NCBI GenBank assembly: GCA_028707125.1
Contig: JAQTUX010000002.1
Span: 80,355 to 144,354, forward strand
From: Candidatus Omnitrophota bacterium
GTDB taxonomy: Bacteria; Omnitrophota; Gorgyraeia; Gygaellales; JAQTUX01
DNA length: 64,000 nucleotides
Direction: 5' to 3'
Shown: one piece after another, positions 4,139 through 22,748 of the stretch
How the letters are laid out: each line of letters starts with the position of its first letter
Numbering within the stretch: position 1 is the stretch's first letter
The notes under the pieces: generated by a model
The model's database searches: none
What the model saw: the letters and a program-made list of their open reading frames with translations, nothing else
What the model was told of the DNA's origin: nothing
Program-made: the position numbers and the translations under genes

Positions 4139-4958
4139 GCATCCTCAAGAATCCCAGCCAGTCATAGCATCCGGACATTTTCTTCGCGAATTTGAAATCG
4201 GTATCATCAAAGGCGCTCAACTCGGTTCTCCTCAGGGCAAAAATATCAGTGCCCGCGTCGTTGAGCCCCTCAATACTGGAACAGGAACAGATAAACTTAC
4301 TCCTTCTAACGGCATCTTTGACATTTTTATTGAATATGCCGTGAGGATAGCTGAACGTATTAACCTGGCCCCCTACATGGCTCTCGATCAGGCCTTTGGA
4401 CTTTAAGACCTCATATTCAAGCTCCTGCTCATTCATCTCGGTAAGGCGCCTGTGGCTTAAGGCGTGCGAACCTATGGACAGTCCCGCCTCACGCAGCCCT
4501 TTGACATCATCCCAACTAAGCATATCCCAGTCATGCCAGTACAAGCCGGCGGGAACCTTATTTTCAATAAAGGATATATTGACGAACAGCGTGGCTGGAA
4601 AACCGAATTCTTTTAACACCGGCAACGCGTTTGTCAGAACGCTTTTATAACCGTCGTCAAAGGTGATCACTGCCGATTTGCCGGGGACCCGACGGTTATG
4701 AATAATAATGTCGACTAATTCCGTAAGCCCCAGGACAAGAAAACTATTCTCCTTCAAGTATTTCATCTGCATATAGAATGTGCCGTTCGGAACCGCCAGG
4801 CCCATCTTATCCTTTTTGGGATCATGCCTCTGGATGGAATGGTACAAAAGGATCCTGCATTTCCCTTCCGCGGATAACCCGGCGCCCCTGCCCTTCCTGT
4901 AAGAATACAGGCAGTCAGAAATTTTGTCTTTGATGGCTCTCTTTACGGGCATAATCAC
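4131..4958 (-). CDS. Polysaccharide deacetylase (NodB / CE4 family)
   Basis: NodB-homology motifs (AVITFDDGYKSV...LKEFGFPATLFV...IGSHALSHRRL). Confidence 0.75.
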   Translation of the reverse strand: MIMPVKRAIKDKISDCLYSYRKGRGAGLSAEGKCRILLYHSIQRHDPKKDKMGLAVPNGTFYMQMKYLKENSFLVLGLTELVDIIIHNRRVPGKSAVITFDDGYKSVLTNALPVLKEFGFPATLFVNISFIENKVPAGLYWHDWDMLSWDDVKGLREAGLSIGSHALSHRRLTEMNEQELEYEVLKSKGLIESHVGGQVNTFSYPHGIFNKNVKDAVRRSKFICSCSSIEGLNDAGTDIFALRRTELSAFDDTDFKFAKKMSGCYDWLGFLRMHG

Positions 4959-6454
4959 CTGAATGAATCAAACCCTGCGAAGATATTGAATCTGGTCTTC
5001 AACCTGTAAAACATCTTTATCGCCGCCCACTCTAAAGGCATAATAAAGAAATCGTACTTGACCCGTAAGGCGGCTATCCGGCGCAGCATTCTATAGAAGA
5101 AACCCTTATAGCCATTACTGAACCTGCGTTCCAGTGACTTTGAAGGAAAGGCCAACGGATAAAGGTATTTAACACACATATTGATCTTATCCAGATACGC
5201 GTTGTTTACCCAGGGGGTATTCACCGTAAGGATACTCCAATCCTGCCAATCTTCCAGCTTCTCCGGGACCCTGAGGCCTTTTTTAATAGACAGATCTAAA
5301 AGCGGAGTGCCGGGATAAGGCGTATAGAGAAAAGGCGTGAACTGATGGTCGGGAAAACGTGATTTTATATCCTTGATCAGTTTCAAACTGCGCTGAAGGT
5401 CTTTCTCCGGGTCAAGAGGAAACCCCGCGATCATAAAAAACTCGGATACGATCCTGTGTTTATCCAGTATTTCAGCGGCCTTGACAATATCTCCGGGCCT
5501 TATCTTTTTATCTATAAGATCCAACACATCTTCATCCCCTGTTTCGGCGCCTATATATAATTTGGCGCAGCCGCTCTCTTCCAGTAAAGATATCAAGCTT
5601 TCCGGAAAGCGGTTGATCTGATCCACCCTGGCATCGGTAGCCCATTTGATCCTGATACCGCTGTCAATTATCTTACGGCAAATATCCTCCGCCCGTTTAA
5701 GGTCCACGAAAAAGTTATCTTCGGCGAATGTGATGCCGTCTATCTTATACCTTTTGACCAGCGTATTTATCTGAGCTGATAAGTTATCCGCGCTGAGTCC
5801 GCTCCATCTGCGCTTATAAACCTCCGGCGTGCTGCAAAATCCGCACGCGTAGGGACAGCCCTGGGAAGAATTCCAAAATATTGTCCTGCCGCCTAAAGGG
5901 GTCGTAAATATATATTTCTCAAAATCAAACAGGTCAAATGCCGCGGGGCCGAATTCATTGATATCCCGGAATTGACGCTGATCATTACGCACAACCCTGC
6001 CCTGCCTCTTATATGCTATGCCGTCGACAGACTCCAGGCCCAAACCATGGCTCAAGGCATATGGCAATTCCTTGATGGTCGCCTCTCCCTGGCCTATTAC
6101 TACAATGTCGATATTCTCATTTGCCAATGTCTCCTCCGGTAATATGGACGGATGCCACCCTCCCCAGACCACCGGCAATTCCCCGTTTATTTTTTTTACT
6201 AATGATGAGGCCCTTAGCCCGCCGGCTATCTGATATCCGGTCATGGAACTTACGCCGAAGAATAACGCCTCGGGCAACGCCTGCTTTAAACCATCGATAT
6301 AGTTCTCTTCCATGCGCTCGTCTATAATGACGACTTTATATCCCGCGTTTTTCAGCTCTGAGCCGATCTTAAGCAAAGGAAGCGGGATATTCTTGTTTAT
6401 ATTATCCCTTTCTGTCTTAGGGTAAAATAAGATAATGGTATGCTTGCGGCTCAT
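4955..6454 (-). CDS. B12-binding domain-containing radical SAM protein
   Basis: N-terminal cobalamin-binding Rossmann region (VVWGGWHPS...IDIVVIGQGEATI) followed by CxxxCxxC (GCPYACGFCST). Confidence 0.85.
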   Translation of the reverse strand: MSRKHTIILFYPKTERDNINKNIPLPLLKIGSELKNAGYKVVIIDERMEENYIDGLKQALPEALFFGVSSMTGYQIAGGLRASSLVKKINGELPVVWGGWHPSILPEETLANENIDIVVIGQGEATIKELPYALSHGLGLESVDGIAYKRQGRVVRNDQRQFRDINEFGPAAFDLFDFEKYIFTTPLGGRTIFWNSSQGCPYACGFCSTPEVYKRRWSGLSADNLSAQINTLVKRYKIDGITFAEDNFFVDLKRAEDICRKIIDSGIRIKWATDARVDQINRFPESLISLLEESGCAKLYIGAETGDEDVLDLIDKKIRPGDIVKAAEILDKHRIVSEFFMIAGFPLDPEKDLQRSLKLIKDIKSRFPDHQFTPFLYTPYPGTPLLDLSIKKGLRVPEKLEDWQDWSILTVNTPWVNNAYLDKINMCVKYLYPLAFPSKSLERRFSNGYKGFFYRMLRRIAALRVKYDFFIMPLEWAAIKMFYRLKTRFNIFAGFDSFR

Positions 6455-7337: not shown

Positions 7338-8444
7338 TTATTTATTCTGGAATGAAAGATCGATACGCTTGATAGCATCCTTAAGAATGAGAGGAAGGAA
7401 CATCCGTGTGTTGAACAAATATCCGCAGGAACATCCGGCGCAATCCTTATAGAACATGCCCCTCTTCGCCTTCATATACCTCTGCGCCTTCCTTAATTCG
7501 CCAAACGGCCTTTCCTTAAGGTTGCCGAAAGTCCCCATTGACATGCAGCCGCCCATCAAATTACCGTATGGGTCGATGATCACCCTGTCCTGTGAGCTCA
7601 CGCATGGCACTCGGTGCTGACGGGGGTCCTTAAAATAATCTTCTATAAAATCTATCGCCGGAAAATTGATTATTAAAGAACGCGGCCTTCTTGATCTTTC
7701 ATCTCTTAGAAAATCCAGCGCTTCCCGCAGAGATCCAAAATCCTTATCGCTCTTCACCCAGAGATCCCTGCCGTTCTCCTCCAGATCAAATAGGAAAGAC
7801 CCTTTATCTATTATATTGATGGCCAGCGGCAGGCCAAGCTCATCCGCGAACCTCTTCACGCCTTTCAACTCGCCTATGGTCGCCTTCATCAGGGTAAAAT
7901 TAATATACGCGTCTATCTTGCGCCTTTTCCTGACCTCGGACAGCGCGGCCAGGTTCTCTCTCAATTTCATAAAAGAACCCGGCAGGCCGCGTATGGCGTC
8001 ATATTTTTCTCCGATCGCGTCCATTGATACGGCTATGGACCTTAAGCCCGAAGCGACAAGTTTCTCTAAGATTTCTCTGGTAGCCAGCATGCCGTTGGTA
8101 GTCAATCCTACCGTAAAACCGTTATTGCTGCCATAAAAAACTATCCCGGTAATATCTTCGCGCAGCAGCGGCTCCCCGCCGGTCAAATGCATGTTCCTTA
8201 TGCCGCTTCTTTTCAAATCCAGAATAATGCCCTTCCATTCTTCAGTCGACAACTCCTTAGCCACAGGCGTCCTCCACTGCCTGCACATTACGCATTTAAG
8301 ATTGCATCTATTTGTGATCATGATGGTGCAGGAACTGGGCCTAATCTCTAAAAAACGATACAAAAACGGCATTAAAGATAAGGAATCTGTTTTTAAAACA
8401 ATTGTTATATACCTGCCGGCCTTTTTAATCCGTTTCAATATCAA
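7338..8444 (-). CDS. Radical SAM / SPASM-domain protein
   Basis: CxxxCxxC (ITNRCNLKCVMCRQW). Cys-rich C-terminal region (CVSSQ...GGCMSMG...CAGCSCG) typical of SPASM/twitch auxiliary clusters. Confidence 0.7.
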   Translation of the reverse strand: MILKRIKKAGRYITIVLKTDSLSLMPFLYRFLEIRPSSCTIMITNRCNLKCVMCRQWRTPVAKELSTEEWKGIILDLKRSGIRNMHLTGGEPLLREDITGIVFYGSNNGFTVGLTTNGMLATREILEKLVASGLRSIAVSMDAIGEKYDAIRGLPGSFMKLRENLAALSEVRKRRKIDAYINFTLMKATIGELKGVKRFADELGLPLAINIIDKGSFLFDLEENGRDLWVKSDKDFGSLREALDFLRDERSRRPRSLIINFPAIDFIEDYFKDPRQHRVPCVSSQDRVIIDPYGNLMGGCMSMGTFGNLKERPFGELRKAQRYMKAKRGMFYKDCAGCSCGYLFNTRMFLPLILKDAIKRIDLSFQNK

Positions 8445-10294
8445 TTTAACACCTTATACAGCACAAACCTGGCGTTTGGCTTCCTCTGATAGTAATATTC
8501 TGAATTATTGAACTCCTTCATCAATAATACCCTTTTATTGGGCAATAACTCCTGAATAGGCGGCCATGGGTTATCCCGTTCATTTGCATTATAATATAGA
8601 TATTCGGCATTATGCTCGCTAACAAGAGAAGCCAGCCTTTTGGTCCGGTCTTGCTCTCCAAATGCCAAAGATCTGATATTGAGATACTTCGGCGGCACGT
8701 ATACATTCGTATGCTGATCGCTAACTATACGTGAATCTAAAGGAATATGTTCATACATCCAATCCGCTATCTCGAAAGCGATATCTTCACGCTGTCGGTA
8801 TTGATATATCCGAGACCCTGCCAGCCGATAGGCATTCAGATAGATATCAACCGTAAACAATGAAACCAATACCATGATAAACAGATATTTCAGTAATCCT
8901 CTGCCCCTATAATCCGATATAAACATATACAAACTCCGAACACATAAAATGCAAATAGCCACAAAGAAAGGCAACATATGATGCTCTGTGAATCTTCCGA
9001 TTGAGAAAAAAGATAAAAAGAAAGGCAATAGAAAAACGAGTATGACCATTCTTTTATAAAAAGCAGCCTTCTCAATCCTGCGATCCCGGAATTTCGGAGA
9101 GAATTCAACAAACAAGTAAAATACAAATAAGATGAGGATCAATATATCAAACGACCTCATTTTATACACAAAAGAATGCAGGAATGCGCTGAATATGCTG
9201 CGTTCCCCTAGTCCTTTCACTGCAGCTATACCTGTAAAATCAAATAAATTATAGGAATGGGTAATGAGAAAATTTTCAAGCGAAAACAGCCAGCGCATGC
9301 CAAAGACCAATAGAAAGACAAAGAACAGGCCACCGGCAATAAATACATACGAGTTTATTTCATTGAGCTTAGCGATTATATCCCTTCTTTTCTGTCTTCC
9401 ACGCTTACTAAAGATCGATAACAGTAAGGGTAAAAATGTAAGGACCGATCCAGCAATAATAACAAAAATCGCTGCCTTGTATTTAAACAGGCTCCCTAAA
9501 ATCCCATATTCCTGATAGAATGTGGCCCCTGTCGACTTACGTACATACAAGAGAATATATACTACCGGCAACAGTATCATAGCTATGCCAATGAGAGATT
9601 CAAAAAACCACGATTTCTTAATAACAGGAAATACGGGATTGTAATTTGTATTCGCTATTCTCTGGTTGTGCTGTCCAAAATACATGGCAGCTATAATCGC
9701 CGGCAATAGGAATACACCGGCATACTTTATATGAAAAGCAAACACAGCATACAATATAGCAATCAAAAGAACCCTCCAGGAAGGTTTATCAATTACTCTC
9801 AACGTATAATTAAGCCCTACTACCATTAATAACAACACAAGCGGCTCGGGCTTAAGATTATTCAAAAGGTAATCAAAGCTAGGCCTGACAGCCAGCAATA
9901 GGACCACCAGAATTTGTTGACTGCCGCTTGCAAAGTGATACCCTATTAAATACCACAACGCTATAAGGGCGGCGATCCAAGACAACAAATGAATCCAACG
10001 CAATACTAAAACAAATCTACCGGGAGTAAAATCTACAAACTTAGAGAACAAGGTATGCGCCAAATCTGAAACAAGCATCCCTTCCAGGCCATAATCAACA
10101 TCCATCTGATAACTCGGCCTTTTTTCTCCGTTGTAATAATACCAGACAAGATCCATCAAATAACCTTCATCACTATTAAAGTAAGTAATTAGATTGGGGT
10201 TATCTATATTATTCTTAATGGTAGGCACCGCCAATATAAAGCTCGCGCAACAAATCACGGCCAGGATTATAATGTTTATTGTTCCGCCTTTCAT
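8441..10294 (-). CDS. Polytopic integral membrane protein, putative GT-C-type glycosyltransferase / polymerase
   Basis: 617 aa with more than 12 predicted hydrophobic helices. No soluble catalytic motif. Sits next to polyprenol-P-sugar synthase-like GT2 genes. Confidence 0.45.
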   Translation of the reverse strand: MKGGTINIIILAVICCASFILAVPTIKNNIDNPNLITYFNSDEGYLMDLVWYYYNGEKRPSYQMDVDYGLEGMLVSDLAHTLFSKFVDFTPGRFVLVLRWIHLLSWIAALIALWYLIGYHFASGSQQILVVLLLAVRPSFDYLLNNLKPEPLVLLLMVVGLNYTLRVIDKPSWRVLLIAILYAVFAFHIKYAGVFLLPAIIAAMYFGQHNQRIANTNYNPVFPVIKKSWFFESLIGIAMILLPVVYILLYVRKSTGATFYQEYGILGSLFKYKAAIFVIIAGSVLTFLPLLLSIFSKRGRQKRRDIIAKLNEINSYVFIAGGLFFVFLLVFGMRWLFSLENFLITHSYNLFDFTGIAAVKGLGERSIFSAFLHSFVYKMRSFDILILILFVFYLFVEFSPKFRDRRIEKAAFYKRMVILVFLLPFFLSFFSIGRFTEHHMLPFFVAICILCVRSLYMFISDYRGRGLLKYLFIMVLVSLFTVDIYLNAYRLAGSRIYQYRQREDIAFEIADWMYEHIPLDSRIVSDQHTNVYVPPKYLNIRSLAFGEQDRTKRLASLVSEHNAEYLYYNANERDNPWPPIQELLPNKRVLLMKEFNNSEYYYQRKPNARFVLYKVLN

Positions 10295-10308: not shown

Positions 10309-12294
10309 TTAATAAAGTTTAGGAATTAAATCTATTTGGGCGAGTACTTCATCAAGGTTGAAACCTATCAAATAGCTGAAATATTCCAATACTTCGTAGC
10401 GAGGTTGATTATCGATCCCTACTAATCTCAACGCCTCATCTCTAGTAAGCAGGCCCTCTCTGATCTGATTAGACCGGAAGTTATCAAATTCTGAGAATCC
10501 GGCAACTGTATAGTAGATATAGTTTGTAAAGGCGGTCTGTCCATCCCCCATCCTCCATTGATTCGGGCCATAGGCTTCATAGACCTGCCAATTATATTCC
10601 CTTCTCAGGACATCTTCCATCTGCCTTTCATTCCACGGCAGATACTCATAGAGATATAAAAAGTCGTCCTTCTGTATAAAGGTAGTAAAATATGACCTTA
10701 CGCTGTCGAGAAATGACTCATTTATATAGCGGGGATTCTTAAGGTATTGGAGCATATAATACAGCGCCAATCGCAATTTTACAGTTGTGCTATAGTGATA
10801 TGTCCTGGCAGTCCTTGAAGTGTTCGCGTTAGCGTCTACTCCGCAAAAACCCACAAAGAATTCCCTTTGTTCCAGAAGATATCCAGAGCAAAAAACAGTC
10901 AATCCTGCATTGATCTCGCGGCGCAACTGCCGCCCAAAATGGTAAAAGTCTTTATCGCCAGCCATAAATAGGGGGACAATACCGAGCTGCGGATCTTTTA
11001 ACCACGCATAAATATTCTTTCTTATATGGCGCCTCTTCTTCTGCAGGTCAGGTGACCTGATAATATGTTCAATCCCAAGTTTACCGCAGATCCTTGCTTG
11101 ATTACGGCGGGATGCATCAGTGGTAAGACCCCAATCATAAGTATAGGCTATCGGATTCATACCATACTTTGTCTTGAGGATATGAAGACCGTAGCAACTG
11201 TCTCTTCCCCCGCTTAAGCCGACCAGGCAATCGGGGCTCCCGTCTTTTGAACGGTATTTCTCAAGAACTCTTTCCAGCTCTTCACTGCCTTTAAATCTCT
11301 GCCTTTCATACCTCCTGCAGAAATTACAGACACCGTCTTCATCAAATGAAATAAAAGGGTATGTGGAAGGAAGGACGCACTTCGTGCATCGCCTTAAACC
11401 TGCGGTATCAGGCCTGGTCTCACGGATATAGAATATACTCCCCCTGGCCTCCGGCTGGTTACCCGGAGCATTGATTTGCTCATTTAACCTGAACTTCTTT
11501 ATTGTACCATCTTCAATTTGCGCCCCGTATCCCGCCTTAATCTGTAATATATTCGAACTCAATGAAGAATCAAATATATCGCTTTTCTTCATAAAATCCA
11601 TTAATATTCTATTCTCGGAAGCGAATACAACGTTCCCGGACTCAATGTCCTCCAGGTAATAGAGCGAACCGGTATTAGTGGCAATGACAAGATTCCTTTC
11701 TGAATTGCACATAAGCGCGAGGGAAGCCGAGCCCTCGATTTCGCCAAATACTTGTGAAACAGAAGATACAAAATTGCCCGTTTGCTGATAGACGGCATCA
11801 AGCCGCGATAGAAATAATCTTGTATCACTCTGAACCAATCCTCCTTCTGCGCTGATAGAGAGCCTGCCCTTAGAACTGTTTTTAAGATTATATTCGTCTT
11901 TGACTAAATTTTCTGCATTTGAAATGAGTCCGTTATGAACGCCTACAAAACTCCCCGACCTCACAGGTTGATTATTGTCGTAAATAGCATGGGAGCCATT
12001 GGTCACGAGGCGGCATTGGCCGATTACCGCTAAAGATAGTCGCATTCCTGCGGGATTATTATGGTCAAAATATGCGGATTTGAGCGTGTTTCTGAATTCG
12101 GGCATTTTCAAGAAAACGGACGGTTTTACTACCCTGCGAAAAATCCGGATCTCATCATGCGAGAGCACGGCCATTCCCGCTGAATCCTGGCCACGGACCT
12201 CGGAAAGCCGAAATAACAACTTGATGTCATGCTCCAATGTATCATGAGTACTCGACTTCTTATCTCTTATAGTTATACCGAATATACCGCACAT
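10309..12294 (-). CDS. Class-II glutamine amidotransferase fused to N-acetyl-sugar amidotransferase (PseA/WbuX-like PP-loop ATP pyrophosphatase)
   Basis: Starts MCGIFGI (Ntn Cys2). Central zinc-ribbon (CTKCVLPSTYPFISFDEDGVCNFCRRYE) followed by PP-loop SGGRDS (LVGLSGGRDSCYGLHIL). This matches the LPS / flagellin-glycan amidotransferase family architecture. Confidence 0.7.
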   Translation of the reverse strand: MCGIFGITIRDKKSSTHDTLEHDIKLLFRLSEVRGQDSAGMAVLSHDEIRIFRRVVKPSVFLKMPEFRNTLKSAYFDHNNPAGMRLSLAVIGQCRLVTNGSHAIYDNNQPVRSGSFVGVHNGLISNAENLVKDEYNLKNSSKGRLSISAEGGLVQSDTRLFLSRLDAVYQQTGNFVSSVSQVFGEIEGSASLALMCNSERNLVIATNTGSLYYLEDIESGNVVFASENRILMDFMKKSDIFDSSLSSNILQIKAGYGAQIEDGTIKKFRLNEQINAPGNQPEARGSIFYIRETRPDTAGLRRCTKCVLPSTYPFISFDEDGVCNFCRRYERQRFKGSEELERVLEKYRSKDGSPDCLVGLSGGRDSCYGLHILKTKYGMNPIAYTYDWGLTTDASRRNQARICGKLGIEHIIRSPDLQKKRRHIRKNIYAWLKDPQLGIVPLFMAGDKDFYHFGRQLRREINAGLTVFCSGYLLEQREFFVGFCGVDANANTSRTARTYHYSTTVKLRLALYYMLQYLKNPRYINESFLDSVRSYFTTFIQKDDFLYLYEYLPWNERQMEDVLRREYNWQVYEAYGPNQWRMGDGQTAFTNYIYYTVAGFSEFDNFRSNQIREGLLTRDEALRLVGIDNQPRYEVLEYFSYLIGFNLDEVLAQIDLIPKLY

Positions 12295-12327
12295 CTTACA
12301 ACCTCCAGTGGTTAATTTTAAGAGCGA

Positions 12328-13173
12328 CTAACGCCTACGGGCTATAACATACATTACATCAAACAGATTTAAATAAAATCTAACCCTGGTTAAACCGTAT
12401 TTACGCAACAGATTATAAATTAAGGAGTTCCCCTTATTCAATACAAACATTCTGTAAGCCATATAATCAATACCGCGATAAAATCCGCAGTAACTATTAT
12501 AAACTACATCAAATCCGAACCTGTCCAGCATTCTAGTTAAAGTCTTACTGGAAAAAAAATGTATATGCGTCGGTGGATGTATCATGCGCCATCCTCCTCT
12601 TCTCAATCGCGCATTAAAACTATCTATGTCTCCTGTGGTCAGGGCGACCAATGAGCCGCTTTTCGTATTATTGCTGATTTTTTCCAAATACAGATCTGGA
12701 CTGGACAAGTGTTCGATAGTGTCCCACATACAAACTACATCAAATCTACGACCCTTTAAATCATATTTTAGAAAATCCGCCTTAACAGCATCTACCTTTA
12801 ACTGTTCGCGGGCATAGAGAACTCCGTCTCCAGATATGTCGAGACCTAAGACTGTATCAAACTGCTTTCTTACCAACTCAAGGAAAAAACCGTAAGCACA
12901 ACCGATCTCAAGAAGGTGCCTATGGCGGTTTGGTTCCATAAAGGCCTGCAGCATTCTTAGACGTAGCCCGAAGTTTTTCTGCAAGATCTCTTTGTCCGCT
13001 AAGTAGTTGTTATATTCACTGCCCAAAAAATATTCTTTACTATAAATTGCGGATGTATCATTGTCACTCAAATGTAAATCGAAAAAAACATGGCCGCACT
13101 CCTGGCATTTTTTTAACCCGGAGTATAAAGATTTACTGTCTCTGCTATGACAGACACAGCATGCACTCGACAT
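12328..13173 (-). CDS. Class I SAM-dependent methyltransferase with N-terminal zinc ribbon
   Basis: CCVCHS...CQECGH zinc ribbon. SAM motif I (LLEIGCAYGFFLEL) and acidic motif II. Confidence 0.75.
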   Translation of the reverse strand: MSSACCVCHSRDSKSLYSGLKKCQECGHVFFDLHLSDNDTSAIYSKEYFLGSEYNNYLADKEILQKNFGLRLRMLQAFMEPNRHRHLLEIGCAYGFFLELVRKQFDTVLGLDISGDGVLYAREQLKVDAVKADFLKYDLKGRRFDVVCMWDTIEHLSSPDLYLEKISNNTKSGSLVALTTGDIDSFNARLRRGGWRMIHPPTHIHFFSSKTLTRMLDRFGFDVVYNSYCGFYRGIDYMAYRMFVLNKGNSLIYNLLRKYGLTRVRFYLNLFDVMYVIARRR

Positions 13174-13203: not shown

Positions 13204-14070
13204 CTAAGATAAGCGCACCACTTCCATAAGTCCATTATCCAACGCGATCTCCGGGCTCCAACCCAGGGTTTTTCTCGTATTTTTTAAATCAGCAATTATA
13301 TAACTCCTCTTATGGTCGCTATTATTGACTCTATCGATCTTATACTTTACCCCTTTAAGCAAAGCTAATCTTTTTGCCAGGCCATAAACACTCAAGCCCT
13401 TGCCTGAACCGATATTCAAGGCCAGAAAACCTTTGAACTTTAAAGCGCAAGACAGAACGAAGGCGTTAACTACATCAGAAATATACACGAAGTCTCTGAC
13501 TGCCATAGGAGATTTCAATACTACCGGTTGTCTTCTGGATAATTGCCTCAGGACATACGGTATCAAGAATGGGGCTTTTTGTCCCGGTCCGTACATATTA
13601 AATATGCGAAACGCAATAACGCCGAGCCCAAAGTTCTTTGCGTGATATTCGCAGATATCTTCGGCAAGCATTTTGCTGACTCCGTATAAGGATTGGGGGA
13701 TAATGGGGGAATGTTCGCTTAGCCATTCCTTCTGCCTAGCCGGCTTATAGACGGCAGATGAAGAGGCAAATAAGCATCTCGCTCCATTACGAAGACAATA
13801 GCGCATTACAGACAGGGTCCCATTTGTATTAATTTCAAATAGCTCGCCGATTCCTCCGCTAAGAACTGTCTTATTAACAGCTGCGAGATGGCAGACTAAA
13901 TCGTATCTTTCCCTGAAATTACCTATATCTCTCACATCTCCATTGTACAGAGAAACCCGTCTGCACATCTGTCTTAAACGGCGAAAAAGATAACCCCCGA
14001 GAAAACCGCCTCCACCGGTAATCAAGATACTGCGGTCTTGCAACTGTCTTATTAATCTGTTTCCTGGCAT
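13204..14070 (-). CDS. NAD(P)-dependent sugar epimerase/reductase (extended SDR family)
   Basis: ILITGGGGFLGGYL Rossmann motif and YxxxK-type region (YGVSKMLAE). Confidence 0.7.
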   Translation of the reverse strand: MPGNRLIRQLQDRSILITGGGGFLGGYLFRRLRQMCRRVSLYNGDVRDIGNFRERYDLVCHLAAVNKTVLSGGIGELFEINTNGTLSVMRYCLRNGARCLFASSSAVYKPARQKEWLSEHSPIIPQSLYGVSKMLAEDICEYHAKNFGLGVIAFRIFNMYGPGQKAPFLIPYVLRQLSRRQPVVLKSPMAVRDFVYISDVVNAFVLSCALKFKGFLALNIGSGKGLSVYGLAKRLALLKGVKYKIDRVNNSDHKRSYIIADLKNTRKTLGWSPEIALDNGLMEVVRLS

Positions 14071-15047
14071 AATCGATATAATGGAGAATCTGTTTCAAAA
14101 AACAGGTGATTGAATTTCTGGTACCACTCAATCGTCTTAATCAAACCGTCTTCAAAACTGATCCTCGGCTCCCACCCCAATATCATTTTGGCCTTTTTAT
14201 TTGAGGCAGCCATCCTCCATATCTCTGTTGGCCTGTACGATATCTTGCCTATACACAAACGTGAACGGGAAGAGGTAAGTTTATGTATCTTTCTCACCAG
14301 AAGCCTGATGGGCATCTCCTGACCGGTTCCGATATTGATAGTCTCTCCTATAGCTTCCTTTTTAATCCCGGCCATAATAAATGCGTCTACTAAATTTTCT
14401 ATGTAATTGAATTCTCGCGTCTGAATACCTTCAGTAGTTATAACATCCTCTCCTTTCAGGCACTTAATGATGATCTCGGCGATAACCGCCCTTGGGCTCT
14501 GGAATGGGCCGAAGGCATTAAAGGGCCTTAATATAACTACGGGTTTCTTATAGACACGTGATTTCATCCTTACATATAATTCACCTGAATATTTCCCTAC
14601 AGAATAAGGGGAGACGGGAAACGGCACCATATCCTCTGAAAAAGGCACGCATTTCTGAAAACCGTATACCTCCGAAGACGATATGTAGACAAATCTCTCG
14701 TAGTCCTCATAAGCATCAATTACATTCACTGTGCCTTTAGAATTTACGTCAATGGCCTCAGAAATATTCATGAAGCTGTCGCCTACATGATTATATGCCG
14801 CGAAATGATAAATTAAATCCGGCCTAATGCTTTTGATCTGCCTCAATGAGTCGGGATTGCGTATATCACCCTCAACCATTGTTATCTTATCCCATATGTT
14901 CACAATACGGATGTTATCAATAATGCTATTATATTTCGTCAAGATAAAAAGCCTCGCCCCATTCTCTACCAGCCTCCTGCATAAATGAGAAGCTATGAAA
15001 CCACTGCCTCCGGTTACCAGTACCCTCTTATTTTTAAATCGCTCCAT
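14052..15047 (-). CDS. NAD-dependent NDP-sugar epimerase/dehydratase (extended SDR)
   Basis: VLVTGGSGFIASHLCRRL Rossmann motif and YSVGKYSGE catalytic YxxxK. Lies directly downstream of a sugar-1-P nucleotidyltransferase, as in CDP/dTDP-deoxyhexose pathways. Confidence 0.7.
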   Translation of the reverse strand: MERFKNKRVLVTGGSGFIASHLCRRLVENGARLFILTKYNSIIDNIRIVNIWDKITMVEGDIRNPDSLRQIKSIRPDLIYHFAAYNHVGDSFMNISEAIDVNSKGTVNVIDAYEDYERFVYISSSEVYGFQKCVPFSEDMVPFPVSPYSVGKYSGELYVRMKSRVYKKPVVILRPFNAFGPFQSPRAVIAEIIIKCLKGEDVITTEGIQTREFNYIENLVDAFIMAGIKKEAIGETINIGTGQEMPIRLLVRKIHKLTSSRSRLCIGKISYRPTEIWRMAASNKKAKMILGWEPRISFEDGLIKTIEWYQKFNHLFFETDSPLYRLCQETD

Positions 15048-15049
15048 CT

Positions 15050-15766
15050 CTATCCTTCCTCTTGTGTGAAGAATTTAATAAAATCCTCTTCTGCCTTTGC
15101 CCATTCCTGCGCAGTATTGAAGGTAATATTAAATCCTTTGTGTTTATAAGCAGTCAATTCCCCTTTATCAATCAAATTATTAAAGAGCCCTATTAAGCCT
15201 TCTCCATCCGGCAAAGAAATAAGGTTATTATCAAGATCCTCCAAGACGGCTTTATCCGTAATAAAATTGCCGATATAATACGAAAAGAGAGGCTTTTCTT
15301 CAAAAAGAGTAACGCGCTGCTCTCTGTCGTACTTGACGATGCCAAAAGGGCTTCGTATATCTGCTATTGTAATGGTTAAGTTCTTCCTGCTTTTTATATG
15401 CCATTTTAATACCAGGTTCGGGTCCATGTTGACAAAGGTATCTCCGTAGGTCACTATTGCCCTATTCCCTATCAGGTCTTTTACCAAAAATAGCCTTTTA
15501 AGCATGCCCGCATCTTCTCCGGCATTAGAAATTTCAATTTTGGCGCCAAGATTACCGCGGGAGATAAACGCCTCTATGGACTCCGACAAATAACCGGTGC
15601 ACAAAATAAATTCCCTGAAACCATGACTCATATAGAATTCAACAATATGCTGGAGAATTGGTTTCTCCCCTAGCGGTATCAACGGCTTTGGCAATGCCCT
15701 GCTTAATTTACCCAACCTTCTTCCTCTGCCGCCGCATAAAATAACTACCTTATCTTTATTCATCAA
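15050..15766 (-). CDS. Sugar-1-phosphate nucleotidyltransferase (glucose-1-phosphate cytidylyltransferase-like)
   Basis: VVILCGGRGRRLGKLSRALPKPLIPLGEKPILQHIVEFY...FILCTGY parallels the RfbF-type signature (ILAGGLGTRL...KPMVEIGGKPILWHIM...FIICCGY). Confidence 0.6.
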   Translation of the reverse strand: MMNKDKVVILCGGRGRRLGKLSRALPKPLIPLGEKPILQHIVEFYMSHGFREFILCTGYLSESIEAFISRGNLGAKIEISNAGEDAGMLKRLFLVKDLIGNRAIVTYGDTFVNMDPNLVLKWHIKSRKNLTITIADIRSPFGIVKYDREQRVTLFEEKPLFSYYIGNFITDKAVLEDLDNNLISLPDGEGLIGLFNNLIDKGELTAYKHKGFNITFNTAQEWAKAEEDFIKFFTQEEG

Positions 15767-16728
15767 TTATGCCTCTCACCAGATATCTCACGGACGATAA
15801 ATACGGGTCTCCCCTTAACCTGATCATAAACTCTGCCGATATATTCGCCTAAAATACCCATTGCCGCCAGCTGTAAACTACTCAAGAAAAATACCGCGAC
15901 TACCAAAGTCGCCCAACCCGGAAGTAAAACGATATTCATCGCGATACCAAACCTTTGCAGTAACCATAGTACCATAACAAATAGAATATAAGAAAATGAC
16001 AAAGCCGATATTATGACACCGGCCAAAGTTATTAAACGCAGCGGGTTTCTGGAGAAAGCAAAAATACCGTCCAATGCAAAAGACAGTAGATCCTTGTATG
16101 AGAATTTGGATTGCCCGCTATATCGCCCATCAACATTATAGAACAGGTATTTCTGCTTAAAGCCTACCCACTCTACCTGGCCCCTTAAGAATTTATGATA
16201 TTCCGGGATCTTGAGAAGCGCCTCCAGGGCTTTTTTATCAAGCAGGCGAAAATCGGACTGTCCGAAATTGAGATTTAATCCGGATATCTTGGATATCAAC
16301 CAGTAAAACCCTTTAACAAAAAGTCGCCTCTGCCCCTTAAGATTGGGATCTTTTTTTATAGTATAGACTACCTCTGCCCCCTCGCTCCAGAATTTAAGCA
16401 TCTCGGGTATCAGCGATGGCGGATGCTGAAGGTCGGCATCCATAGTAATAACCGCATCGCCGTTTGCATAAGTCATACCGGCAAAGAGGGCGCCCTGGTG
16501 GCCGAAATTGCGGGAAAGTGAAATATAACGGACTTTATTATCCCGCTTATTGAGATCCTTTAATATTACCAGTGAATTATCGCTGCTACCGTTATCAACA
16601 AACACCATCTCATAATTGATACCGTGTTGAATACATACAGACCTCACTTCCTCATATAACTTTTCCAAGTTGCCCTCTTCGTTAAATACCGGGAACACTA
16701 CGGAAATTAAACGACTTTCATTTTGCAT
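15763..16728 (-). CDS. GT2 polyprenol-phosphate glycosyltransferase (GtrB/ArnC/Dpm1-like)
   Basis: GT-A N-terminus (ISVVFPVFNEEGNL...VFVDNGSSDNS...DADLQHPP). Two C-terminal TM helices characteristic of polyisoprenyl-phosphate sugar synthases. Confidence 0.8.
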   Translation of the reverse strand: MQNESRLISVVFPVFNEEGNLEKLYEEVRSVCIQHGINYEMVFVDNGSSDNSLVILKDLNKRDNKVRYISLSRNFGHQGALFAGMTYANGDAVITMDADLQHPPSLIPEMLKFWSEGAEVVYTIKKDPNLKGQRRLFVKGFYWLISKISGLNLNFGQSDFRLLDKKALEALLKIPEYHKFLRGQVEWVGFKQKYLFYNVDGRYSGQSKFSYKDLLSFALDGIFAFSRNPLRLITLAGVIISALSFSYILFVMVLWLLQRFGIAMNIVLLPGWATLVVAVFFLSSLQLAAMGILGEYIGRVYDQVKGRPVFIVREISGERHN

Positions 16729-16747: not shown

Positions 16748-18364
16748 TCAATTTATAAATCGCAGGTTTCGTAAAACCGGATCTTTTAAAGCCAGCGCGC
16801 TATTATACTTAAGGCGCGAAATTAGATATCTGATATTAAAAATCAAGGCTCCATTTTCAGTTAAATTAAGCGCGTTAAGCCTTCGCAAGGATTCCGTTGA
16901 CTTGAATTCACCGCAAAGGCTGCTCATCAGCATATCCGCCTCATCCTTCATGCCGGAATCAAGATAACACCAGTATAAAAGCACAGCGTAATCAAGGAAT
17001 CTCGACCTCTCCATGACGGGGGGAAAATCTATTAACCACTCCCTGTCCCGACGACTAAGCCTGTCACGATTCAGATAGCGCGATTTAACCCATAAACTCT
17101 GAATTAACCATTCCCGATAGCCGTTCCCCGCCCACTCTCTTAGGGCGGGTAAATCTTCCCGCCCGTCCCTGCAGCGCACCAAACTATGGGCCTTGCCGAT
17201 AAAATCCTTATCGGCACAACCGCCCTCTGCCTGAAACAGGGTTTTTTCGGCATAGGAAGCGTAACCCATCCAGGCCCAGAAAAATGCCAGTTCTATCAGG
17301 CGTTCTTCAGGCCTGTATAATTCCTCTCCGGCGGCAATCCGGATAATGCATGAAACGACTCTTTCAAGGGATTCTCTCGGGGAAAATGACGATATGTTAT
17401 CGCGTACCGCCGTATATAAATCCCTGCTGTTCATCTCTATCTTCTTTAATAATCTCTCCAGATCTCTGTGGTCATTAATTATCGCCTCGTCCAATAAACC
17501 ATGGAAAAATGTCTTCCTGCCTAAAGGGATAACGGCTACGGGAATATCTCTCTGCAAAGCATCAATAATTACCTGGGAATTCCCGCGGTTAAGCAATATA
17601 TCCGTGATATCCAGTATCTCATCAATAGGCATGCGCGAATCGGCAATCTTGGCGCGCGGAGAGTGCCGCCTTAGCGAAACGGCAAAATCATCCTTACGGT
17701 CTTCAGGGTGCGGCTTGATAAGCAACTCGTAACTTTCCGGCAACCCCTGAGTTACGCAGGCAATTAATTTACTGCATACTTCCCCAGCGTTTGCATCGGA
17801 AGATATGGCATCGAGGCACAACGTAGCAGTATGTTTACGGTTGGATAGACCAAATATGCCTTTTAATTTATTCAGCTGGCTTGGCGGCTTACGCCTGCTA
17901 TATCCGGAAATGCATCCAGTGGTTTCTATTGTCTCGGGAGCAATGCCTGTCTCAATAAACTTCAACCTTTCATAATCAGAAGCCACGAGAAGACGATCCA
18001 CCGGCAAAAGATAATTATTCAACAAGCCCTGGTGCAGCATCATCTGATACACCTCTTCAATCGCTATAACCGGGATCCTTCTCAGCGTCGCCTCTTGTAT
18101 TAAATGGCACGGCGGGATACGCGGCTGGGAAGTAAAAAGCACCAGGGCAGAAACCCCATCAAAAACACCCTGCGGCAACTTGGGAAAATACCTTCCCTTA
18201 AAATAAAAAACCTCATCGGCAGAACCCCTGTCCATATCGGAGAACCAGGGTAGTCTGCGGTTGTAAATACATCTTATCGTCCAATCCGGAAGGAATTCTC
18301 TGAATATCCCCATATTTCTTGCATGCACAATGCTCACCGGATTAAAAAGCAAGACCTTGCCCAT
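16748..18364 (-). CDS. Hypothetical protein; possible GT-B-like (TagF/KpsS-like) sugar/polyol-phosphate transferase domain
   Basis: 538 aa, no TM. Weak GT-B-like C-terminal pattern (KPHPEDRKD...DILLNRGNSQVIIDALQRDIPVAVIPLGR). Family not identified. Confidence 0.35.
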   Translation of the reverse strand: MGKVLLFNPVSIVHARNMGIFREFLPDWTIRCIYNRRLPWFSDMDRGSADEVFYFKGRYFPKLPQGVFDGVSALVLFTSQPRIPPCHLIQEATLRRIPVIAIEEVYQMMLHQGLLNNYLLPVDRLLVASDYERLKFIETGIAPETIETTGCISGYSRRKPPSQLNKLKGIFGLSNRKHTATLCLDAISSDANAGEVCSKLIACVTQGLPESYELLIKPHPEDRKDDFAVSLRRHSPRAKIADSRMPIDEILDITDILLNRGNSQVIIDALQRDIPVAVIPLGRKTFFHGLLDEAIINDHRDLERLLKKIEMNSRDLYTAVRDNISSFSPRESLERVVSCIIRIAAGEELYRPEERLIELAFFWAWMGYASYAEKTLFQAEGGCADKDFIGKAHSLVRCRDGREDLPALREWAGNGYREWLIQSLWVKSRYLNRDRLSRRDREWLIDFPPVMERSRFLDYAVLLYWCYLDSGMKDEADMLMSSLCGEFKSTESLRRLNALNLTENGALIFNIRYLISRLKYNSALALKDPVLRNLRFIN

Positions 18365-19431: not shown

Positions 19432-21219
19432 CTAAATCCTGAACTGGATATCATATAGCCTTCTGTATAACCCGTTTCTCTCCAGCAGTTCCGCGTGCCT
19501 TCCGGACTCTGCCACCTTGCCCTCTTCTAAAACAATAATATTATCCGCGTGCACTATGGTTGAAAGCCTGTGCGCGATGGCTATGACCGTACGTTCTCTT
19601 GCCAGCTCGTCAATCGCCTCCTTAATTAATCTTTCCGTCTCGGTATCAAGGGAACTGGTGGCCTCGTCTAAAATCAATACCTCAGGATTATGTATTATTG
19701 CCCTTGCGATGGAAATCCTTTGTTTCTGTCCGCCGGACAACCGGACGCCTCTTTCTCCCAGTACGGTATCATAGCCGCTGGGAAGCCCTGTTATAAATTC
19801 ATGTGCATTAGCCGCCCTTGCGGCCCTGAATATTTCCGTATCAGGTATGCCATCATGCCCATATGCTATATTATCCTTAACGCTGGCATTGAAAATAAAG
19901 GTGTCCTGAGACACAAAACCGATTTTTCTCCTCCAAACCCTCAGATCAAGCGCTTTCAGATTCACTCCGTCAACCAGTATCTGCCCCAACTCCACATCGT
20001 AGAATCTGACGATCAAATTAATTATGGTGCTTTTACCTGCGCCTGAAACCCCCACGAATGCGGTCATTTTTCCCATGGGAATCTTGATGTTCAGTTTATT
20101 TAAAACATATCTATCCGCATTATCGTAAGAAAAATAGACATCCCTGAATTCTATGGAATCACGCACCTTATCAATCTTCTTCTGTCCGCTGATTATCGTT
20201 CTTTTTCCCTCCCTATCATACATATCTTCGTAATTTTCGAAAGCCGCCAGCCTGCTTATCGCCGTAGAACGGTATGTATTCAAGCTGTTTAATTGAGTTA
20301 GCATCCTCGCGAGAACTAGCAAATATGTGGCAATAAAAGGGAATGATCGCGCCATATCAATCTTTATTACATTGATAAGCGCAAGGAAACATAAGAAGAT
20401 CAGTCCAAAAATTAGCGCTTCGGATAAAGGTATGATGAGATGTATGTTTTTATTGGTCTGATAGTGTAAAAGATACAGCTTCCTGGTCGCATTATTAAAT
20501 CTGCCCTTCTCCAGATCTTCTGTGCTGCAGCTCTTTATCAGCGCCATGCCTCCCAATATCTCCATTAACTTATGATTATACTCTTTGATTGACTCTGATA
20601 TGCTTCTTCCGATCCGCTTAATGTTCTTCATAATTAATTCAATGGGCATTAAAACGGCTGCGGTCAAAAGAAAAACTATTATACTTGCCCTCCACGATAT
20701 CAAGAACAAAATAATCACATATGCCAGTATTCTGGCAAGAACCGCAACGAAGGTAAGCACGGCCAATATAAAATCACCCATACGCTCTGTTTCGGCATTA
20801 ATGACCCCTATGATATTGCCCGTCTTTACGCCGTGGAAAAATTGTATATCGTACTCTATGAGATTACCCATAAGGTTTATTCTAAGATCCCTGATGGTGC
20901 TAAATCTTAATTTAGCGATCAGTATATTCGAAAGATATAAAAAGACATTTTTCATAACCAGCATCAGAAATATAAATATGAAAATCAGCAGTATTGCGTC
21001 TGACTGATTTAAGGACGCAAATGATATAACTGATCCTTTTAAAAATGGCAATTCTTGAAATAAACCTGTTTTATTGCTTATCATGCTCTGAATAAGGGGG
21101 ATAAGCATGCCGAAGCTGGCGCCTTCAAAGAAGGACGATGCCATAATTGAGAATAGGGCGCTCCAACTCAATAAAGGATATCTTCTTAGATATTTTAATG
21201 TGATGGATAAGAACTTCAT
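19432..21219 (-). CDS. ABC transporter permease/ATP-binding protein (MsbA-like exporter)
   Basis: Six-helix TMD followed by Walker A (GVSGAGKST), ABC signature (LSGGQKQRISIARA) and Walker B (ILDEATSSLD). Confidence 0.85.
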   Translation of the reverse strand: MKFLSITLKYLRRYPLLSWSALFSIMASSFFEGASFGMLIPLIQSMISNKTGLFQELPFLKGSVISFASLNQSDAILLIFIFIFLMLVMKNVFLYLSNILIAKLRFSTIRDLRINLMGNLIEYDIQFFHGVKTGNIIGVINAETERMGDFILAVLTFVAVLARILAYVIILFLISWRASIIVFLLTAAVLMPIELIMKNIKRIGRSISESIKEYNHKLMEILGGMALIKSCSTEDLEKGRFNNATRKLYLLHYQTNKNIHLIIPLSEALIFGLIFLCFLALINVIKIDMARSFPFIATYLLVLARMLTQLNSLNTYRSTAISRLAAFENYEDMYDREGKRTIISGQKKIDKVRDSIEFRDVYFSYDNADRYVLNKLNIKIPMGKMTAFVGVSGAGKSTIINLIVRFYDVELGQILVDGVNLKALDLRVWRRKIGFVSQDTFIFNASVKDNIAYGHDGIPDTEIFRAARAANAHEFITGLPSGYDTVLGERGVRLSGGQKQRISIARAIIHNPEVLILDEATSSLDTETERLIKEAIDELARERTVIAIAHRLSTIVHADNIIVLEEGKVAESGRHAELLERNGLYRRLYDIQFRI

Positions 21220-22748
21220 GATAATCTCTTAATGATAAAACCTTTGATTTTGGACAATTTCTCAAATACCGCTCTCTCTAAAGAGATAAAGAGAAAGAAA
21301 TTGAAGCGCATTCTAAACGAAGATACTATCTCCCTTATCCTCCCTTTAAAACTGGGATTATAGAAGGCGATCTGCCTATAGGCATATACCATTGCATTCA
21401 ATCTGCGGGGATTATCGATCCATTTATAATTATCAAATGATTCATAACCAAAGCTATCTACAAATTCCCTTTCAGAAAGCTTTGCCCACTCTTTAAGGCT
21501 GCGAGGCGGAGAATAGCCGTAATTATCCACGATTTCCTTATAAAGCGGTGACCCTGGGTATGGCCTGAAAGGAGTAACAGAAACACAGCTTATCTTTACC
21601 ATGTTCCTGATTTTCAATGCAAGACGATAAGTATTTTCAATATCCCTTTCTGTCTCTCCGGGAAGCCCGACCATAAAATTCATTTTAGGAATGATGTTGG
21701 CTCTGGACAGCATCTCAGCCGCTTTAATAATTTGCTCAACCTTAAGATTTTTTTTCAATTTATCCAGCATTGACTGTGAGGCGCTCTCCACTCCCATCGC
21801 CGCAACAACCATGCCTGAACGGCTTAATCTCTTTACTGTCTCAAAATCGACATAATTATCGCTGAAATAATCCGCCCTTGTCTGAGGCCGCCACTTGATA
21901 TTCAAATTTTCCTTCTCTAACAGATCAAGGAATTCAAATGTTCTTTTCCTGTCAACAAAGAAGTTTTCATCTAATGGCTGGATGAAATCAGCGCCGTAAT
22001 TGCTCTTGAGAAATTTAATCCTCTCTACGATCTCTCCCGCCTCGCGAAAACAGCATTTCTTTCTGACTATCACGTTAATACAAAAGGTGCATTGGTAAGG
22101 GCACCCCAACGCGGTTACAATGGGATAGGCCCTGGTATCTTTGTACTGCCCGCTATAGAAATCCTCGATAGCAACGCTATTCCTTCTGGAGTATCGTTCA
22201 TGGTCTAGTAATGAAAAATCAATAAAAGGGGTGTTACTAAAATCGTCCTTGCATTTATTTTCTTCATTTGCTTTTATGCGCCTGCCTGTTTTATAAAATA
22301 TCCCGGGGACGCAAGAGAGATCATCTCCGCGGGAAATGGTTTCACCCAATTTAACAATGGTAGCAGCGGCATCGTTGACAACGGCTATGTCAACCGCAGG
22401 GTCTTCGACTGTCTGCTCGGGGAAAAGTGTCGGATGCACCCCTCCCCAGGCAACCGCTGCATCGGGGAACTTTGCCTTTATGGCCCGTGATACAAAATAC
22501 GACCAAGGCAGTTGTATCGTCATCACGGAAAAACCTACAAACGCCAGGTTTTCATCAATCTCGGACAGTATAGCTTTTGTCGCATCCCCAATATCCAGAT
22601 AAGTGCCGTCAATCACCTTGACCTGAAATCCGGCCCTGTCCAGAATAGTAGCCAATATCATTATTGCCGTATTCGGATAAAGGCCGTAATCCGGACGCCT
22701 GTGAAAATGAATTCCAGGATTAACTAAAATAACCTTGTTTTTTCGCAT
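21216..22748 (-). CDS. B12-binding domain-containing radical SAM protein
   Basis: B12-binding N-terminus (AWGGVHPTL...DIAVVNDAAATI). CxxxCxxC (GCPYQCTFCIN). Confidence 0.85.
   Translation of the reverse strand: MRKNKVILVNPGIHFHRRPDYGLYPNTAIMILATILDRAGFQVKVIDGTYLDIGDATKAILSEIDENLAFVGFSVMTIQLPWSYFVSRAIKAKFPDAAVAWGGVHPTLFPEQTVEDPAVDIAVVNDAAATIVKLGETISRGDDLSCVPGIFYKTGRRIKANEENKCKDDFSNTPFIDFSLLDHERYSRRNSVAIEDFYSGQYKDTRAYPIVTALGCPYQCTFCINVIVRKKCCFREAGEIVERIKFLKSNYGADFIQPLDENFFVDRKRTFEFLDLLEKENLNIKWRPQTRADYFSDNYVDFETVKRLSRSGMVVAAMGVESASQSMLDKLKKNLKVEQIIKAAEMLSRANIIPKMNFMVGLPGETERDIENTYRLALKIRNMVKISCVSVTPFRPYPGSPLYKEIVDNYGYSPPRSLKEWAKLSEREFVDSFGYESFDNYKWIDNPRRLNAMVYAYRQIAFYNPSFKGRIREIVSSFRMRFNFFLFISLERAVFEKLSKIKGFIIKRLS

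Follow-up and report, generated by a model that had tools for sequence, protein, structure and literature searches.

A predicted single-polypeptide, glutamine-dependent amidotransferase related to WbuX in an Omnitrophota glycan gene array

Acetamidino sugars decorate O-antigens, flagellins, and archaeal glycans, where they alter the charge and are immunodominant. The N-acetyl sugar amidotransferases (NASATs) associated with them comprise WbuX with WbuY/WbuZ (Escherichia coli O145), WbpG with HisH2/HisF2 (Pseudomonas aeruginosa O5), PseA/PtmG (Campylobacter), AglX/Y/Z (Methanococcus), and LpNASAT (Protein Data Bank [PDB] entry 8WEX). Homologues are genetically needed for the acetamidino groups of Legionella, Campylobacter, and Methanococcus (PMC10607449, PMC3766260, PMC2952790). 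HisH2/HisF2 have been proposed as the ammonia suppliers to WbpG, with the WbpG–HisF2 interaction validated by co-immunoprecipitation (PMC11445079), although in the literature that we found the nitrogen donor of NASATs has so far only been inferred. Here, we analyze a gene from a 64,000-nucleotide stretch of a Candidatus Omnitrophota genome (contig JAQTUX010000002.1; hereafter, the window), in which a class-II N-terminal nucleophile (Ntn) glutaminase is fused to a WbuX-like PP-loop synthase. Judging from its sequence, we consider it probable, albeit well short of certain, that the product is a single-polypeptide, glutamine-dependent amidotransferase of the NASAT type (WbuX/WbpG/PseA/PtmG), that is, a self-contained acetamidino-sugar synthase.

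The architecture, the invariant catalytic residues, the homology and fold, the family size, and the complementary distribution of HisH/HisF presented below were all computed directly. All gene-like open reading frames (ORFs) of at least 150 amino acids in the window lie on the minus strand, and the GC skew is negative throughout; the whole stretch forms a single, very long array of co-directional glycan genes. The complete coding sequence of the fusion protein (10309..12294, minus strand, as for all window genes below) appears in the ORF list with 661 amino acids plus a stop codon, and its product, starting with MCGIFGI, is 100% identical to an NCBI protein (P0001) from a Candidatus Omnitrophica metagenome-assembled genome (MAG) that is labeled "hypothetical protein." Together with more than 120 full-length homologues at 44–65% identity, this identical entry indicates a real conserved gene rather than a chance ORF. 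The start codon, which puts Cys at position 2, is supported by a Shine-Dalgarno sequence, GGAGG (12302..12306), located 7 nt 5' of the ATG (12294-12292); the Cys2 codon, TGC (12289..12291), was likewise read directly and would specify the N-terminal nucleophile after removal of Met1.

Three segments make up the protein: a GlmS-like class-II (Ntn) glutaminase domain (aa 1–270; 11485..12294), assigned from Pfam, NCBIfam, a family profile, and Foldseek; a variable inter-domain linker (aa 271–298; 11401..11484), which in an alignment of 36 full-length homologues (45–65% identity), the basis of all residue conservation given below, is poorly conserved and differs in length; and a WbuX/NASAT-like PP-loop synthase module (aa 299–661; 10312..11400), assigned from TIGR03573, hhalign, and 8WEX. 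The synthase module carries a tetracysteine zinc ribbon, CTKC-x16-CNFC (C303, C306, C323, and C326; 11317..11388), and the PP-loop SGGRDS (aa 361–366; 11197..11214), the ATP pyrophosphatase signature. The first-pass annotation of the window had recognized an Ntn glutaminase fused in cis to a zinc-ribbon and SGGRDS module, and the ORF, domains, and motifs were all located, with the zinc ribbon and PP-loop translating exactly where they had been placed. In a confident AlphaFold2 model of the fusion (predicted local distance difference test score, pLDDT, 86.5 overall and 62–75 in the linker), the predicted TM-score (pTM) of 0.84 suggests a fixed, defined two-domain arrangement.

The synthase half is related to WbuX along its full length. 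The module matches TIGR03573 (WbuX) with an E-value of 3.4e-41 and 141.8 bits, below the curated NCBIfam cutoff of 203.2 bits, and hence represents a distinct, divergent NASAT clade. When compared by hhalign with a canonical WbuX that exceeds this cutoff (376 aa; L085:8842-9969), residues 299–661 align to WbuX residues 5–350 of 376 with a probability of 99.4% and an E-value of 9e-22 over 322 columns. Legionella NASAT 8WEX is the closest PDB structure by both sequence and fold, and the top Foldseek match (E 2.8e-13, ~395 columns, target-normalized TM-score 0.57). The four cysteines, SGGRDS, and many more residues of the C-terminal module are invariant, and among the 253 retrieved family members of at least 600 aa, SGGxDS is present in all 253 and the zinc ribbon in 249. 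The tetracysteine motif, which in LpNASAT binds Zn and is defined as CXXCXn[GN]XCXXC (PMC10607449), reads C303-x2-C306 ... G321-V-C323-x2-C326 in the fusion. Pfam yields a weak PP-loop match, with neither Asn_synthase (PF00733) nor a SIS domain detected in the fusion protein. Given the 99.4% WbuX match, the absence of PF00733, and 8WEX as the best fold, the possibility raised at the outset that the PP-loop domain might belong to asparagine synthetase proper is answered in the negative. A sulfur transferase of the TtuA/LarE type, to which weak PP-loop matches were also seen, was ruled out by the fused glutaminase and the far stronger homology to WbuX.

The domain order of the fusion, a Cys-starting Ntn glutaminase followed by a PP-loop ATP pyrophosphatase, is the same as in AsnB and AsnB-like proteins such as WbpS. 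Homologues are named GlmS or AsnB in UniRef and by JGI, and Foldseek lists both AsnB and GlmS chains, so that a mis-split or mis-named AsnB or GlmS had to be considered; we give this reading almost no credence. The domain evidence, with neither PF00733 nor SIS, refutes it. GlmS and AsnB models reach aa 1–253 only, those of GlmS covering aa 1–243 with 41–44 bits against cutoffs of 381–418. An AsnB paralog in the window (53770-55665) aligns with aa 1–266 of the fusion only, that is, with the glutaminase part, and the structural alignments to AsnB have a root-mean-square deviation of ~27 Å.

Within the glutaminase half, Pfam places GATase_6 (28.5 bits, cutoff 27) and GATase_7 (28.4 bits, cutoff 25) at aa 90–232. 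Thus, of the domain annotation anticipated in the first pass, the GATase_6/7 part stands above its cutoffs, whereas TIGR03573, although matched, falls short of its own. In NCBIfam, the N-terminal domain of GlmS (E 1e-11, aa 1–237) ranks ahead of PurF, AsnB, and EgtC. A phmmer search with the N-domain alone retrieved no PDB chain at E ≤ 0.01, and a family profile was therefore needed to reach the structures: GlmS/GFAT1 chains were matched at 3e-13 and PurF at 7e-7, with no AsnB chain in the PDB under 0.01. The profile aligns residues of the fusion to the GlmS/GFAT1 motifs RGYDSAG, HTRWATHG, HNGII, and ETDTE, and Foldseek superimposes the N-domain on the GlmS glutaminase domain 1XFF with a TM-score of 0.79. 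Residues C2, G3, G6, R34, G35, R95, L96, G100, N108, P110, H120, N121, G122, and D157 are invariant; among these, C2, R34, R95, N121-G122, and D157 are equivalent to C1, R26, R73, N98-G99, and D123 of GlmS. By these comparisons, the glutaminase half is of the GlmS type and not of the AsnB type.

Some AsnB relatives, beta-lactam synthetase among them, have lost glutaminase activity. The Pfam scores barely above the cutoffs and the empty single-sequence search of the PDB could accordingly be read as signs that the N-domain is a degenerate or regulatory remnant, and that the enzyme uses free ammonia or an unlinked donor. We regard this as very improbable: the catalytic residues are invariant down to 45% identity and retained in ~250 members, the profile match to the GlmS glutaminase (3e-13) and the fold are close, and HisH/HisF are missing from the fusion loci, as expected if the domain were a working nitrogen donor. 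All retrieved members of at least 600 aa with an intact N-terminus begin with M-C, and 248 of the 253 retain HNG. An inactive glutaminase was rejected on the invariance of the catalytic residues, and the concern that Cys2 or the oxyanion residues might prove lost on alignment is thereby settled.

Among described proteins, the glutaminases of GlmS/GFAT (1XFF, 2J6H, and 6R4E) are the closest relatives of the N-domain by profile and fold, with equivalent catalytic residues, but the fusion differs from GlmS in lacking the two SIS isomerase domains that follow the glutaminase there and in carrying an invariant leucine, L96 (codon 12007-12009), at the position of Trp74. In GlmS, Trp74 gates the ammonia channel.

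Consistent with a working nitrogen donor in cis, the genes for the canonical donor in trans are missing around the fusion. Neither HisH (PF00117) nor HisF (PF00977) was matched by any ORF of at least 150 aa in the whole 64-kb window, which bears out the first-pass claim that wbuY/wbuZ-like genes are absent from the locus. We applied the same ORF and phmmer pipeline to the neighborhoods of 89 fusion loci and 55 canonical stand-alone WbuX loci from metagenomes. HisH/HisF occur within 5 kb in 43 of the 55 canonical loci, a control set representing one WbuX clade only, but in just 1 of the 89 fusion loci; when the count is restricted to loci flanked by 3 kb or more on each side, the figures are 12/14 and 1/59, respectively. 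In the sole fusion locus with HisH/HisF, from a Bacillota MAG (L085:7421-11974), the fusion is immediately preceded by a full canonical triad of HisH, WbuZ ("AglZ-HisF2 acetamidino modification protein"), and WbuX, all three above their curated cutoffs. There, the TIGR03573 scores are 143.4 bits for the fusion and 325.3 bits for the neighboring WbuX. Since the triad is complete, its HisH/HisF pair is accounted for by the canonical WbuX; both systems are thus present side by side, and each presumably has its own N-acetyl group or substrate.

These counts, together with the interaction data for WbpG (PMC11445079), agree with the view that canonical enzymes use HisH/HisF partners. In the fusion, the cis-encoded Ntn glutaminase seems to stand in for the HisH/HisF proteins that otherwise supply ammonia in trans, and the complementary distribution supports the earlier suggestion of a different solution to ammonia delivery. 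The mutual exclusivity of the fusion and HisH/HisF in gene neighborhoods is strong comparative evidence that the reaction runs on glutamine-derived ammonia and that two unrelated glutaminase solutions evolved for the NASAT reaction.

Drawing on the known chemistry of Ntn amidotransferases and PP-loop enzymes and on NASAT genetics, we infer glutaminase activity, inter-domain ammonia transfer, amidine chemistry, and the nature of the substrate. Removal of Met1 would leave Cys2 as the N-terminal nucleophile of the GlmS-like Ntn glutaminase, which would convert glutamine to glutamate and ammonia. The C-terminal module, with its zinc ribbon and SGGRDS PP-loop, would bind ATP and adenylate the carbonyl oxygen of a sugar N-acetyl group, with release of pyrophosphate, and the ammonia from the N-domain would then displace AMP to give an acetamidino (amidine) group. 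The glutaminase would thus do in cis the job of a separate HisH/HisF-like pair (WbuY/WbuZ, HisH2/HisF2, or AglY/AglZ). The likely substrate at this locus is a nucleoside diphosphate (NDP)-activated or polyprenyl-phosphate-linked (6-deoxy) N-acetylhexosamine (HexNAc) provided by the co-transcribed genes; its 6-deoxy character, which is speculative, is suggested by the co-transcribed nucleoside triphosphate (NTP)-transferase, LegB-like 4,6-dehydratase, and short-chain dehydrogenase/reductase (SDR) genes. The neighboring methyltransferase may then modify the product. More broadly, the gene context of the fusion, in the window array and at homologous loci, is one of glycan biosynthesis.

Several observations weigh against the amidotransferase reading as stated. 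The synthase module remains under the curated TIGR03573 cutoff, and the substrate chemistry of so divergent a clade could differ. Single-sequence and HMM matches to 8WEX span mainly aa 303–387, and the central region (~aa 430–560) matches it poorly by sequence. No conserved aminotransferase or obvious N-acetyl-sugar pathway was found beside the fusion, and the compact islands described below as type I are flanked by housekeeping genes (helicase, dehydrogenase, and GroEL). The context is also unlike that of canonical loci, represented here by a single WbuX clade: a Wzx-like flippase gene lies within 5 kb in 54 of the 89 fusion loci versus 0 of the 55 canonical ones. Finally, our literature searches turned up no in vitro reconstitution of a NASAT, so that even the chemistry of the reference enzymes is known from genetics.

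Across the PP-loop enzymes, the groups acted upon include carboxylates, ureido groups, and ring carbonyls. The same architecture might therefore serve another chemistry, in which a uronic or nonulosonic carboxylate is turned into a carboxamide, as by the AsnB-type WbpS, or a non-sugar envelope substrate is modified, with no amidino sugar formed. The subthreshold TIGR03573 score, the poorly matching central region, the lack of conserved amino-sugar or N-acetylation genes nearby, the housekeeping surroundings of type I loci, and the neighborhood distinct from that of canonical WbuX would all suit this alternative. Nevertheless, we hold it to be unlikely, because the profile homology to canonical WbuX runs full length and takes in both the tetracysteine motif and the C-terminal helices, because three AsnB-type amidotransferases in the window could already carry out carboxylate amidation, and because a LegB-like HexNAc dehydratase is co-transcribed with the fusion.

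With the acetamidino-sugar synthase as the preferred reading, the fusion can be placed among described amidotransferases. It shares with canonical NASATs the tetracysteine zinc ribbon, the SGGxDS PP-loop, full-length synthase homology, the fold, and a location in glycan clusters and, presumably, the ATP-dependent conversion of an N-acetyl to an acetamidino group. It differs from them in its nitrogen donor, a class-II Ntn glutaminase in cis instead of a class-I HisH with a HisF barrel in trans, in its score below the TIGR03573 cutoff, and in its loci, which are without HisH/HisF and have a Wzx-like flippase adjacent instead. Showing the NASAT hallmarks but neither reaching the TIGR03573 cutoff nor having HisH/HisF beside it, the fusion is set apart from plain NASAT members as an additional type of class-II amidotransferase. 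With AsnB, it shares, besides the domain order, the adenylation of a carbonyl that is then attacked by ammonia; however, its synthase is not PF00733, its glutaminase is nearer to GlmS, and its presumed conversion is that of an amide carbonyl to an amidine, whereas AsnB turns a carboxylate into an amide. Built from a GlmS-like glutaminase and a WbuX-like synthase, the fusion is an assembly of the same two superfamilies that is independent of AsnB.

GMP synthetase, glutamine-dependent NAD synthetase, and phosphoribosylformylglycinamidine (FGAM) synthetase (PurL/PurQ) likewise pair a glutaminase with an ATP-activated step in which nitrogen takes the place of a carbonyl oxygen, and the last of them also turns an amide into an amidine. 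Their glutaminases, however, are of the class-I triad or nitrilase type, and their synthases are unrelated or only distantly related to that of the fusion; to our knowledge, none of these enzymes acts on sugar N-acetyl groups. The classical Ntn amidotransferases are PurF, GlmS, AsnB, and GltS, and the fusion would add a further synthase partner to this group. It also offers a single-polypeptide system, present in culturable strains, for the enzymology and structure of ammonia channeling.

The fusion is not a peculiarity of the Omnitrophota locus; the database search envisaged in the first-pass annotation uncovered a widespread family. When the C-terminal module alone was searched against 1.84 billion cluster representatives (50% identity) at E ≤ 1e-30, 371 matches were obtained, and in ~143 of the top 150 representatives the PP-loop module is preceded by 200 residues or more, so that, as far as these sequences go, fusion is the rule within this PP-loop clade. 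The short exceptions are mostly 5'-truncated ORFs that still bear part of the glutaminase, apart from one apparent stand-alone PP-loop module (P0220). Relatives are found at no fewer than 562 loci in species-representative genomes from more than 10 phyla, with hosts that include Rhodospirillales, SAR11 single-cell genomes, Bdellovibrionota, Planctomycetota, Omnitrophota, Myxococcota, Acidobacteriota, Chloroflexota, Nitrospinota, Bacillota, and a Methanoperedens archaeon. Three hosts are in culture: Pseudomonas abietaniphila ATCC 700689, Oceanibacterium hippocampi CECT 7691, and Legionella londiniensis ATCC 49505. We also encountered a 756-aa metagenomic protein (P0185) without the glutaminase, in which the PP-loop module is followed by a C-terminal, multi-pass "flippase-like domain" (TIGR00374, 76 bits) and is thus physically tied to the membrane.

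Despite its size and ecological spread, the family is mis-annotated: RefSeq labels its members "hypothetical protein" and UniRef and JGI label them GlmS or AsnB. In three RefSeq entries, the Oceanibacterium and Legionella londiniensis orthologues P0269, P0272, and P0273 (WP_176244901.1, WP_160149083.1, and WP_165474513.1), the annotated start is 19–26 residues short and removes MCGIFG, which is kept in the longer forms of the original submissions. The present assignment corrects the annotation of this family, which occurs in at least 562 species genomes. Literature searches on the fusion architecture and on the nitrogen donor of NASATs found no publication describing the fusion.

In the window, gaps of 33 and 14 nt separate the fusion gene from a methyltransferase gene on its upstream side and a membrane-protein gene on its downstream side, respectively. 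The upstream neighbor (12328..13173) encodes a 281-aa S-adenosylmethionine (SAM)-dependent methyltransferase (Pfam Methyltransf_23) with an N-terminal Cys-rich motif, the cluster of which accompanies the fusion in 14–16 loci at a median distance of 500 nt (14 loci). In Campylobacter, PtmH N-methylates the amidine after PtmG has acted (PMC3766260), and by analogy the 281-aa protein could, speculatively, N-methylate the amidine in a PtmH-like manner. The same operon holds three NDP-sugar genes, encoding an SDR epimerase/reductase (13204-14070), the LegB-like 4,6-dehydratase (14052-15047), and the NTP-transferase (15050-15766), as well as a family 2 glycosyltransferase (GT2) of the polyprenyl-phosphate sugar synthase type (PgfS/ArnC-like by NCBIfam; 15763..16728) with 2 transmembrane (TM) segments. 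This GT2 matches PgfS (282.6 bits) and ArnC (169.3 bits) end to end, in both cases under the equivalog cutoff, and its cluster is found near the fusion in 44 of the 89 loci. Downstream of the fusion lies a 617-aa, 11-TM membrane protein (8441..10294), PMT_2/GT-C-like (Pfam PMT_2 29.1 bits, cutoff 26.1), for which no PDB match was found by sequence. A large multi-pass membrane protein adjoins the fusion in most loci.

Two types of loci can be distinguished. In type II, to which the window and a Brocadiaceae homologue locus with the same gene order (L003/L004) belong, the NTP-transferase, LegB-like dehydratase, and SDR genes, the GT2, the 281-aa methyltransferase, and the fusion are followed by a Wzx-like flippase and/or a large PMT_2-type membrane protein. 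Type I loci, mostly from Rhodospirillales, are compact islands composed of a divergently oriented gene for a ~620-aa, 11-TM protein, the fusion, and then a Wzx-like gene, with a median gap of 12 nt between the last two. The gene of this ~620-aa family is oriented divergently from the fusion in ~21 Rhodospirillales-type loci, and its alignment (L014:7917-9848, L041:8030-9871, and 13 others) has invariant motifs that include SQWDEF and KKG; it has no match in Pfam and none in the PDB by sequence. Equating this Rhodospirillales family with the PMT_2-like protein of the window was rejected, the hhalign probability being 1.6%.

The tight, fusion-specific linkage to membrane proteins is not explained by a simple "NDP-sugar amidotransferase" reading, and it leads us to a tentative and rather doubtful proposal. 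In this proposal, the fusion, a Wzx-like flippase, and the large multi-pass membrane protein (GT-C-like or 11-TM), joined in some lineages by the ArnC/PgfS-like GT2 and the methyltransferase, might form a self-contained, hitherto unrecognized envelope-decoration module. The fusion would be its cytoplasmic enzyme and, by a logic akin to that of ArnD in the Arn pathway, would convert a polyprenyl-phosphate-linked N-acetyl sugar at the inner membrane face into an acetamidino sugar with a positive charge, which would then be flipped and passed on to the cell surface. Marine Rhodospirillales, SAR11, Bdellovibrionota, Planctomycetota, and Omnitrophota commonly carry this putative module. In seven loci (L005, L026, L030, L052, L059, L065, and L078), the fusion is adjoined by a gene for a NodU/CmcH-type carbamoyltransferase of ~605 aa, which suggests further modification of the same sugar.

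Elsewhere in the window, there are three AsnB-type amidotransferases (GATase_7 plus Asn_synthase, E down to 1e-104; 39816-41669, 53770-55665, and 60082-61992) and, with the fusion, the locus therefore holds four Ntn-glutaminase amidotransferases with two types of synthase. Four operon ORFs have no Pfam match: 16748-18364 (538 aa), 22720-24639 (639 aa), 35872-37716 (614 aa), and 53056-53769 (237 aa); the 538-aa ORF has no NCBIfam match either. The window further encodes four B12-binding radical SAM enzymes (4955-6454, 21216-22748, 30398-32101, and 33165-34691) and one NirJ/SPASM-like radical SAM enzyme (7338-8444), candidates for a role such as C-methylation of sugars. Radical SAM genes recur near the fusion in other genomes, with the B12 type in 10 loci and a 368-aa type in 9. 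The region 24649-39825 has an unusual gene set, with a short NeuB-like gene (236 aa; 39115-39825), two GT2::cytidylyltransferase fusions (24649-26004 and 37742-39112), further CTP_transf_3 genes, a ketol-acid reductoisomerase (KARI; 27701-28714), two 2-hydroxyacid dehydrogenases, and Ldh_2 (32085-33158); the scan of window ORFs of at least 150 aa revealed no DegT-type aminotransferase. This set may encode an undescribed keto- or nonulosonic-acid pathway.

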